This document shows positions 5,695 to 6,109 of a stretch of 64,000 nucleotides of DNA, in pieces (position 1 is the first letter of the stretch; each line of letters opens with the position of its first letter). The notes under the pieces were generated by a model. That model did no database searches and was not told the origin of the DNA. It saw only the letters and a list, made by a program, of their open reading frames with translations. The position numbers were made by a program, and so were the translations under genes. Origin of the DNA: a virus (Duplodnaviria > Heunggongvirae > Uroviricota > Caudoviricetes); IMG/VR virus record IMGVR_UViG_3300025131_000004. The stretch is one strand, 5' to 3'.

Positions 5695-6024
5695 TCATCT
5701 CAACACTTTGAAACCCCTAAAGAACTTTCGGTCCTCTCCATACACTGGAATGGATGCTGCTGCAGTCATCTGCATTCCGATGTCAGGTTCAAAGAATGGT
5801 TTCATTGAGATGCCATTGAGTGCGATGTCATTCACCGCTTCTTTCAAGGCATCCTCATCCTTGACACCTAGAAGCACCATAAAACAGGTATCTTCCGGTG
5901 TCGTGCCCATCTTTTCCATGATTCCACCCATCTCTAGGCTTGCATGGCAGGCTTGGACTGCCTGATAAGACTTATCAAGATCCTTTCTAACTAGTACGTA
6001 AACGTAGGGGTTGCCCTAATGCAT
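5695..6024 (-). CDS. PTH2-like peptidyl-tRNA hydrolase with an in-frame TAG at codon 3
   Basis: The track ORF 5695..5931 (MGGIMEKMG...) continues in-frame upstream as NPYVYVLVRKDLDKSYQAVQACHASLE, which carries the PTH2 N-terminal motif. The only upstream initiator is the ATG at 6022-6024 (ATG CAT TAG GGC...). It is preceded by the SD AAGGAGAAAGAA. No alternative start codon lies between the TAG and the conserved strand. Confidence 0.5.
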
Positions 6025-6030
6025 TTCTTT

Positions 6031-6036
6031 CTCCTT
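6031..6036 (-). promoter_or_regulatory. Shine-Dalgarno AAGGAG 7 nt upstream of the ATG at 6024
   Basis: Seen directly on the minus strand. Confidence 0.5.
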
Positions 6037-6109
6037 GGTATTCGCAGAGGGACTCGAACCCTCATCATCGGGTTTAGAATCCGCTGCTCTTCCTTTGAGC
6101 TATGCGAAC
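6036..6109 (-). tRNA. candidate suppressor tRNA (anticodon CUA, amber), CCA encoded
   Basis: Acceptor GTTCGCA/TGCGAAT (7 bp including G.U), D-arm GCTC-AAAGGAA-GAGC, T-arm GAGGG-TTCGAGT-CCCTC, and an encoded discriminator A plus CCA. The anticodon arm is GCGGA-TTCTAAA-CCCGA: 3 central bp with U33, anticodon CUA and A37. Its arm is nearly identical to the tRNA-Cys arm in this window. Confidence 0.45.

Follow-up and report, generated by a model that had tools for sequence, protein, structure and literature searches.

A phage PTH2-fold gene with an amber codon at codon 3 beside a tRNA-CUA: a probable single-gene read-through gate

The locus

The Caudoviricetes record IMGVR_UViG_3300025131_000004 was analysed over a stretch of 64,000 nucleotides (nt), here called the window. 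The subject of this report is a small PTH2-like gene near one end of the window, which carries an in-frame TAG as its third codon and lies directly downstream of a tRNA gene with a CUA anticodon. The features of the locus are, in the direction of transcription:

6036–6109, minus strand: predicted amber suppressor tRNA with a CUA anticodon (ARAGORN and the Rfam tRNA model)
6031–6035, minus strand: Shine-Dalgarno (SD) sequence AGGAG, 6 nt before the ATG and abutting the 3′ CCA of the tRNA (read from the sequence)
6022–6024, minus strand: ATG start codon of the full-length open reading frame (ORF), the sole initiator upstream of the conserved strand
6016–6018, minus strand: amber codon TAG, codon 3, followed by G, i.e., a purine at +4 (read from the sequence; conserved in loci L001 and L008, see below)
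5932–6015, minus strand: coding segment free of start codons, from the TAG to Met-32 (GNPYVYVLVRKDLDKSYQAVQACHASLE), with beta-strand 1 and most of helix 1
5695–6024, minus strand: full PTH2-fold ORF, 109 codons including the TAG, with a TGA stop at 5695–5697 (Pfam, profile, AlphaFold2 and Foldseek)

The start region reads ...ACCA AGGAG AAAGAA ATG CAT TAG GGC AAC CCC TAC GTT..., with 11 nt from the 3′ end of the tRNA to the ATG, and its translation is MH*GNPYVYVLVRKDLDKSYQAVQACHASLEMGGIM...VLR* (asterisks denote stop codons). The TAG is followed by 106 sense codons. The next in-frame ATG, GTG or TTG in the window lies 29 codons past it, and near-cognate start codons are likewise absent from the stretch that leads up to the conserved strand. 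The invariant first strand and helix, YVYVLVRKDL..QAVQACHA, sit between the TAG and this first downstream start codon, and gene callers annotate only the C-terminal piece of 74–78 amino acids (aa). A first-pass annotation, made from the letters of the DNA alone, had described the TAG at codon 3 behind an SD-driven ATG and the absence of ATG, GTG and TTG between it and the conserved strand. Both descriptions are borne out, the former by direct reading of the minus strand. Its placement of the tRNA at 12 nt from the SD sequence was wrong, as the 3′ CCA directly abuts it.

The putative suppressor tRNA

The candidate CUA tRNA with an encoded CCA, proposed in the same annotation, was accepted both by ARAGORN and by the Rfam tRNA model. 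The latter scores 6036–6109 at 61.2 bits (gathering score 29, E 3e-12), which is the top Rfam tRNA score within 5.0–7.5 kb, and the match runs end to end (model positions 1–71 of 71). The cloverleaf is canonical, with CUA at positions 34–36 of a 7-nt loop (UUCUAAA), U33 and a purine at 37; the tRNA further has a discriminator A73, a G1.U72 pair, the encoded CCA and a short variable arm. The label 'Pyl' given by ARAGORN is a consequence of the anticodon alone. By the identity rules of E. coli for CUA tRNAs the residue inserted at the TAG would presumably be Gln or Lys.

Pairwise comparison revealed no close parent of the suppressor among the 29 other tRNAs of the window. An origin from a tRNA for Trp was considered as the window lacks tRNA-Trp, and finds no support in A73 or the sequence. 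The nearest tRNA is given for context only:

6114–6186, minus strand: tRNA-Gln (CUG), in the same tRNA string, 4 nt upstream of the suppressor

This tRNA-Gln is not a recent duplicate of the suppressor. ARAGORN reports 30 tRNA genes in the window, all on the minus strand between 1228 and 27104, which cover 19 amino acids plus the CUA suppressor; none of the 30 is a tRNA-Trp. Two further elements lie close to the PTH2-like gene. Between this gene and tRNA-Met there is a weak, sub-threshold Rfam tRNA match at 5457–5535 on the minus strand (23.5 bits, E 0.077), perhaps from a degenerate tRNA. The other, at 5605–5690 on the minus strand, adjoins the PTH2-like stop codon on its 3′ side and is a cloverleaf-like element with a tRNA-type T arm (GAGGUUCGAUCCCUC), a 10-bp 'anticodon' stem and an 11-nt loop; it is called by neither ARAGORN nor Rfam, and its folding energy is not better than that of shuffled sequence.

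The PTH2-fold protein

With the TAG set to a sense residue, the product matches Pfam PTH2 (PF01981) over residues 9–75 (E 0.0025, 18.4 bits), which is below the gathering score of 23. The 78-aa ORF that starts at Met-32 has no Pfam match on its own. PF01981 hits are precomputed for several homologues, and PHROG 1866, a family of unknown function, matches residues 3–90. A database search returned 47 homologues, and the near-invariant columns of the family alignment are Y9-V10-L11-V12-R13-D15-Q21-V23-Q24-H27-A28, that is the block YVLVRxDL...QxVQxxHA. Searched as a single sequence against PDB sequences the protein gave a chance-level match only; the family profile found PDB PTH2 sequences with E values of 9.5e-7 and 1.7e-5.

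The AlphaFold2 (AF2) model has a predicted local distance difference test (pLDDT) of 96.2 and a predicted template-modelling score (pTM) of 0.88. In a Foldseek search against PDB, PTH2/Bit1 or related archaeal structural-genomics proteins fill the top 12 ranks (E 2.5e-6 to 2.2e-4, TM 0.65–0.79), and the match at rank 13, 2gax, is a protein of unknown function. The predicted product thus has the PTH2/Bit1 alpha/beta fold. Residues 4–10 (YVYVLVR) form the first beta-strand of the model and residues 15–36 the first helix, and both would be lost from a product initiated at Met-32, the strand entirely and the helix for the most part. The claim that the conserved strand lies upstream of Met-32 is upheld by Pfam, the family alignment, the profile and AF2, all of which place the beginning of the PTH2 homology at about residue 6–9. 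The label 'translation factor' for this gene says too much: the protein has the PTH2 fold, but its Pfam score is below threshold.

The phage protein and PTH2/Bit1 (PF01981; PDB 2zv3, 1q7s, 3erj, 1xty) have in common the fold, the RxDL...QxxHA block and the acidic-x-x-G...T-A segment. The phage protein differs in being shorter, about 100 aa, with 13–21% identity to solved structures, and, as aligned, in having a shortened Lys-rich loop before QxxHA and a Glu at the Asp of the DAG motif. For archaeal Pth2 the catalytic residues reported are this Asp and a Lys of the loop that precedes QxxHA. In alignments to PDB PTH2 the invariant Glu of EPD is placed opposite this Asp, and the His of QxxHA and the Thr of T-A are retained; the Lys-containing loop is two residues shorter than in PTH2 and has Tyr or Gln at the Lys positions. 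From the fold and the retained QxxHA, acidic and Thr-Ala motifs the enzyme would most likely cleave an ester bond at the 3′ end of a tRNA.

Conservation and selection

Related loci were numbered with the prefix L. The same sequence of tRNA, SD, ATG, CAT and TAG is present in four loci, L004–L007, from different samples (ENA, two JGI samples and Logan), and the suppressor tRNA is identical across them. More distant relatives keep the TAG in a changed setting. L001, a contig of 199 kb with 83% aa identity, has ATG TCG TAG GGC, and L008, a Tara contig with 70% aa identity, has ATG TCC TAG GGA; each has its own, quite different tRNA-CUA upstream. Between the window, L001 and L008 synonymous sites are saturated, and over the whole gene the rate of nonsynonymous substitution (dN) is 0.14–0.21 with a ratio to the synonymous rate (dN/dS) of about 0.07. 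The most constrained part of the gene is the segment from the TAG to Met-32, where dN is 0.08–0.11. The locus consequently shows what is expected where read-through is programmed: its in-frame stop is conserved, and the coding segment that follows is under purifying selection and lacks an initiator of its own. Judged from this comparison of sequences, the TAG is neither an error nor the result of decay.

A conserved 'DGG[HK]AMS' before the TAG in L001 and L008 was considered as a longer translated leader and rejected: its nucleotides are the Shine-Dalgarno sequence (GGAGG or GGTGG), and therefore the proximal ATG is the start. The tRNA-CUA of L001 (2752–2823) differs strongly from that of the window both in sequence and in its distance to the gene, despite 83% identity between the PTH2-like proteins; the tRNA-CUA partner appears, on the sequences, to have been swapped or to be evolving much faster than the protein. 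A nucleotide search with 5400–6500 against INPHARED phages gave no match.

The leader TAG across the family

Family members were collected by a pattern scan of IMG/VR with the family alignment, which yielded 80 loci with 30–52% identity, many from contigs of 100–400 kb. A leader TAG was counted if it lay at most 16 codons upstream of the conserved strand, and removal of duplicates left 64 distinct loci. A leader TAG is found in 40 of these. Counted from the nearest ATG, 24 of them have it at codon 3, 6 at codon 4 and 4 at codon 5, and an SD-like motif precedes the leader ATG in 22/38 loci. Where no start codon lies between the stop and the strand (26 loci), the stop is TAG in all but one, i.e., in 25.

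In E. coli amber suppression is classically favoured by a purine on the 3′ side of the codon. After the leader TAG of the 40 loci the +4 base is A in 24, G in 15, T in one and C in none, so that 39 have a purine there, and at the 21 genuine TAG stops of the window it is T 7 times, G 6, C 4 and A 4 times. A +4U is reported to lower stop-codon read-through in bacteria (PMC5289835).

Two variants of the arrangement were seen. L011/L012 (at about 2955–3000) have two leader TAGs, MRPFQ*TKEEYG*DQHFYVYILVRHDL, with 6 sense codons between them and a purine after both (ATG AGA CCA TTC CAA TAG ACT AAA GAA GAA TAC GGA TAG GAC). In L071 the PTH2-like ORF has no start codon and runs in frame on from the TAG stop of a full-length upstream gene, a member of a neighbour family of about 100 aa with the motif EYRHxHIAYCLLRGR. 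This neighbour family adjoins the PTH2-like gene in 20 loci, and a second one (SKWGYHxCD...) is found in 10 loci; neither has a Pfam or PHROG match and neither occurs in the window. The loci recorded for the first neighbour family are:

EYRHxHIAYCLLRGR family: L071, L029, L033, L047–L051, L058, L060, L062, L063, L068–L070, L076, L081, L083, L084, L086, L089

Linkage to tRNA-CUA

A tRNA-CUA lies within 3 kb of the gene in about 50 of 72 distinct family loci and has the same orientation as the gene in all but one locus. Leader TAG and tRNA-CUA are seen together in dozens of phage lineages that are not related to each other. In total, 57 distinct CUA tRNAs and 200 other distinct tRNAs were counted in the family loci. 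The reverse sampling was made with IMG/VR tRNA-CUA genes collected by a loop/T-arm pattern, which gave 57 confirmed loci, often with short flanks: the family gene is present in 13/57 of these, versus 0/23 of the pattern-matched loci without a CUA tRNA. Among 185,579 bacterial and archaeal species genomes the family was found in only 7 loci, all of them in metagenome-assembled genomes (MAGs). A tRNA-CUA is present within 3 kb of each of them, and 4 also have the leader TAG. The tRNA-CUA with a TAG-gated PTH2-like gene occurs in MAG contigs at L219 (Rubripirellula sp. chromosome OZ244207, 3.28 Mb) and at L216–L218; three of the contigs are labelled Planctomycetes and one is an 8.3-Mb chromosome. 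This suggests that these pairs belong to a prophage or an integrated element.

Cultured phages

A tblastn search against INPHARED placed the family in jumbo phages of Xanthomonas, Stenotrophomonas, Klebsiella, Serratia, Erwinia, Yersinia, Pectobacterium, Cronobacter, Acinetobacter and Ralstonia, and in many of the records there is no annotated feature under the match. Examples with the leader TAG are:

Serratia phage BF (L091): MTH*NDKTWIYVFVRTDL (MTH*NDKTW...), in an unannotated gap
GAP32 (L093/L094): MAQ*NEKTWIYVFVRTDL (MAQ*NEKTW...), only the truncated GAP32_397 annotated
RsoM2USA (L095): AAAGGAG-N8-ATG TTG TAG ATT..., ML*ISDKTY..., in an unannotated gap

Similarly, in the GenBank records of Erwinia pEa_SNUABM and Yersinia fHe-Yen9 the gene is unannotated or only a C-terminal piece of it is given. 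The gene is likely missed or shortened in such records because the leader TAG removes a usable start codon. GAP32 has a 'Sup-tRNA' with a CUA anticodon 3 kb downstream of its PTH2-like gene, and additionally encodes a separate canonical PTH2 (GAP32_382). The homologues in XacN1 and RaK2 have no leader TAG. CUA suppressor tRNAs were reported for XacN1 (PMC5852040) and RsoM2USA (PMC8504454) with no target identified, and in silico read-through of all 18 TAG stops by the XacN1 authors added no database similarity (PMC5852040).

Stop-codon use in the window

Real genes of the window lie almost entirely on the minus strand, and its long plus-strand ORFs are antisense artefacts. Stop codons were accordingly counted on the minus strand only, in 82 non-overlapping ORFs of at least 80 aa, which end in TAA 31 times, in TGA 30 times and in TAG 21 times. 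Among the TAG-ending ORFs are those for DNA ligase and a trypsin-like peptidase, whose Pfam domains are complete. TAG is therefore a common ordinary stop in the window and the window is not read by genetic code 15 (TAG = Gln), in line with the first-pass view that any recoding is not genome-wide.

Several approaches to the coding map were rejected. Candidate TAG-bridged genes obtained from a codon-usage coding score were intergenic or off-frame, the score having poor discrimination. A greedy longest-ORF map on both strands picked up plus-strand antisense ORFs (50% GC), many of them TAG-ending. Plus-strand genes seemingly 'split by TAG' had junk translations, and one of them is opposite a Band_7/SPFH gene with a Pfam match. 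The plus-strand ORF at 31377–32744 (455 aa) is opposite the Band_7/SPFH gene at 31473–32525 on the minus strand, which has a Pfam match, and for the 1345-aa ORF at 35188–39225 (plus strand) and the 942-aa ORF at 35104–37932 (minus strand) there is no Pfam match on either strand, and either of the two may be the coding one.

Two other minus-strand regions may be mentioned. In the region 2233–4632 the DNA ligase ends in TAG (3535–3537, with C at +4), in frame with a BCS1-like AAA ATPase (2233–3519); there is no stop in the 15-nt spacer, and read-through would therefore fuse both proteins. A peptide deformylase gene (7326–7811) lies within the tRNA region, and the identical gene of L004 has a Pfam Pep_deformylase match.

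Discussion

The arrangement probably constitutes an amber gate on a single gene, by which synthesis of the enzyme would be tied to the activity of the suppressor tRNA. Ribosomes would start at the ATG (6024–6022) on AGGAG, add His and meet UAG at codon 3. There the phage tRNA-CUA would insert an amino acid, provided that it has been processed and charged and prevails over release factor 1 (RF1); this tRNA is probably on the same transcript as the PTH2-like gene. Suppression would give the 109-residue PTH2-fold protein and termination a dipeptide only. As synthesis would need suppression, the amount of enzyme should track suppressor activity, and the site would act as a gate of the feed-forward or feedback kind. 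Because the leader that holds the TAG is not conserved, the identity of the inserted residue would be immaterial: with the gate at codon 3 of a variable leader a failure would cost one dipeptide, and any residue could be tolerated, in keeping with how diverse the suppressor tRNAs are in sequence. Together, tRNA and enzyme would be a two-part module, conserved in phages whose code is otherwise the standard one. Comparative evidence thus supports the first-pass proposal of programmed amber read-through of one gene, and it is from this evidence that we infer the decoding itself. The likeness drawn in that annotation to the partial recoding of large gut phages does not fit, as a single gene is affected and TAG is still a common stop.

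The enzyme might act on the acylated form of the suppressor or on peptidyl-tRNAs that arise from read-through, and two kinds of logic are conceivable. The gate could provide a feed-forward supply of an enzyme that clears the by-products of read-through, or it could exert negative feedback on the suppressor itself. The former is slightly favoured because family members without the gate keep an adjoining tRNA-CUA. It is tempting to speculate, if only as a rather doubtful extension, that the tRNA-CUA and the enzyme make up a homeostat of read-through, in which the enzyme would specifically deacylate or hydrolyse the aminoacyl or peptidyl form of the suppressor or serve as its trans-editing deacylase. 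As synthesis of the enzyme would itself need suppression at codon 3, such a pair would close a negative feedback loop. If this were true UAG read-through would be kept at a fixed low level while TAG continues to serve these phages as a stop, and the pair would be a virus-encoded analogue of the autoregulation of release factor 2 (RF2), made of a tRNA and a hydrolase.

Other explanations dispense with the suppressor or give it a wider role. ATG-NNN-TAG could be a two-codon mini-ORF that ends by normal termination and senses drop-off or termination, and re-initiation or non-canonical initiation further downstream would then yield the protein. In favour of this are the stereotyped form of two codons, seen as a TAG at codon 3 in 24 of the 40 loci, and the two-codon bar minigenes of phage lambda, which cause drop-off of dipeptidyl-tRNA and are in this way linked to peptidyl-tRNA hydrolase. 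Re-initiation would however have to manage without an ATG, GTG or TTG between the TAG and the strand, both in the window and in about 25 other lineages, and in the window without a near-cognate start codon after the TAG as well. The stop is almost exclusively TAG and never TAA, a restriction that a plain upstream ORF does not need, and neither the purine after the TAG in 39/40 loci nor the co-localised tRNA-CUA is called for. Two successive TAGs in L011/L012, and in L071 an ORF that continues from the TAG stop of the upstream gene, are likewise at odds with a two-codon unit, and we regard this explanation as improbable.

Reassignment of TAG throughout the genome or in a block of genes, with the PTH2-like gene as one among many, would account for a phage-encoded tRNA-CUA; Sup-CTA tRNAs are associated with code 15 (PMC11210395), and as only 64 kb of a genome of about 195 kb are in view a recoded block of late genes elsewhere is conceivable. 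It is nevertheless highly improbable, given that 21 of the 82 window ORFs, ligase and trypsin-like peptidase among them, end in TAG, that crude screens of the window revealed no other convincing TAG-bridged gene, that the same arrangement occurs in GAP32, BF and RsoM2USA, which are annotated under the standard code, and that read-through of the 18 TAG stops of XacN1 in silico added no similarity. Finally the gene could be decayed or truncated, the TAG being a nonsense mutation or an assembly error and the product either nothing functional or the 78-aa protein from Met-32. The short C-terminal piece called by gene callers (74–78 aa) and the unannotated or truncated state of the region in GenBank records would agree with this. 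Against it stand the identical TAG in four loci from different samples, its retention at 70–83% protein identity when synonymous sites are saturated and the segment before Met-32 is the most constrained, and its recurrence in 40/64 family loci. The Met-32 product would moreover be without strand 1, most of helix 1, most of the near-invariant N-terminal residues and any Pfam match. Decay is therefore hardly credible.

Some observations do weigh against suppression of the codon-3 TAG as a full account. Rfam marks G27.A43 and A31.C39, at the ends of the anticodon stem of the suppressor, as non-standard pairs, and because of these two pairs the suppressor may, as far as its sequence goes, be a weak decoder of UAG. 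The tRNA-Cys of the window (10213–10288) has a near-identical anticodon arm (CGGAUU-NNN-AAACCCG) with the same A31.C39 mismatch, which is therefore perhaps tolerated in this phage; the acceptor stems and discriminator bases of the two tRNAs are unlike. On the amino-acid identity of the suppressor, nearest-neighbour voting against 200 phage tRNAs gave scattered top matches with one generic tRNA-Lys dominating. About one third of the family has a plain ATG start and a tRNA-CUA still adjoining, and gating is therefore not the whole reason for the linkage. To judge from gene positions the link is one of the enzyme with the tRNA and not only of the TAG with the tRNA. In some phages the tRNA-CUA is far from the gene, and in XacN1 it is located in the terminal repeats. 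The family counts overstate the number of independent events because the loci share ancestry. No convincing second TAG-interrupted gene was found in the 64 kb, by crude screens that would miss some, above all TAGs near starts.

A single-gene amber gate may be compared with several known systems. In code-15 crAss-like, Lak and other gut phages (Yutin 2021 PMC7886860; Borges 2021 preprint 10.1101/2021.08.26.457843; Peters 2022 PMC9523058) a tRNA-CUA likewise goes with in-frame TAGs, and expression depends on the phage tRNA. Here, on the other hand, one small gene is concerned, with the TAG at codon 3–5 of a non-conserved leader and TAG still frequent as a stop, and whereas those gut phages have recoded blocks of late genes, the present ones are marine or environmental phages or jumbo phages of Proteobacteria. 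The prfB gene for RF2 has an in-frame UGA that is passed by a +1 frameshift (PMC12421855), and thus also an early stop in a translation-related gene, at a site that senses the balance of termination; in the PTH2-like gene the stop would be bypassed by a dedicated suppressor tRNA and not by a frameshift, and what would be sensed is suppressor tRNA versus RF1. Synthetic feed-forward gates, in which one input drives both a suppressor tRNA and its amber target with little leak (PMC7969014), are engineered; their natural counterpart would be the pair described here, which is widely conserved and has its amber at codon 3. Minigenes of the lambda bar type have the same form, SD-AUG-NNN-stop, and both systems would be tied to peptidyl-tRNA hydrolase through drop-off; the phage loci differ in using TAG only, in having a conserved ORF without a start in frame behind it and in their linkage to tRNA-CUA. 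The orphan amber suppressor tRNAs of XacN1, RsoM2USA and GAP32 match the present tRNA-CUA in kind, as do the phages that encode them. The proposed target, a PTH2-like gene interrupted by TAG, is present in GAP32 and RsoM2USA, where the records leave it unannotated or truncated; in XacN1 the homologous protein is a longer fusion, and its gene has no TAG.

Suppressor tRNAs of phages are known, and so is TAG recoding. In the literature searched, which left most subscription journals outside, we found no prior description of a conserved codon-3 amber gate on a single gene, in a phage PTH2-fold family linked to tRNA-CUA under the standard code. The family would provide a concrete, conserved and so far unannotated target gene for orphan amber suppressor tRNAs of standard-code jumbo and environmental phages, at a stereotyped site, SD-ATG-NNN-TAG-purine, with the look of one made for suppression. 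A further implication is an error of annotation that is systematic, since gene callers drop or shorten the gene; the arrangement could also serve as a natural template for amber-gated expression circuits. The question can be put to a direct test in cultured phages of enterobacterial hosts, with GAP32 on Cronobacter and BF on Serratia. The protein family belongs almost entirely to phages, given the 7 loci in 185,579 species genomes, and would represent a phage-specific branch of the PTH2 fold that is genetically bound to a tRNA reading a stop codon. The arrangement as a whole suggests a possible intermediate between standard coding and full TAG recoding.

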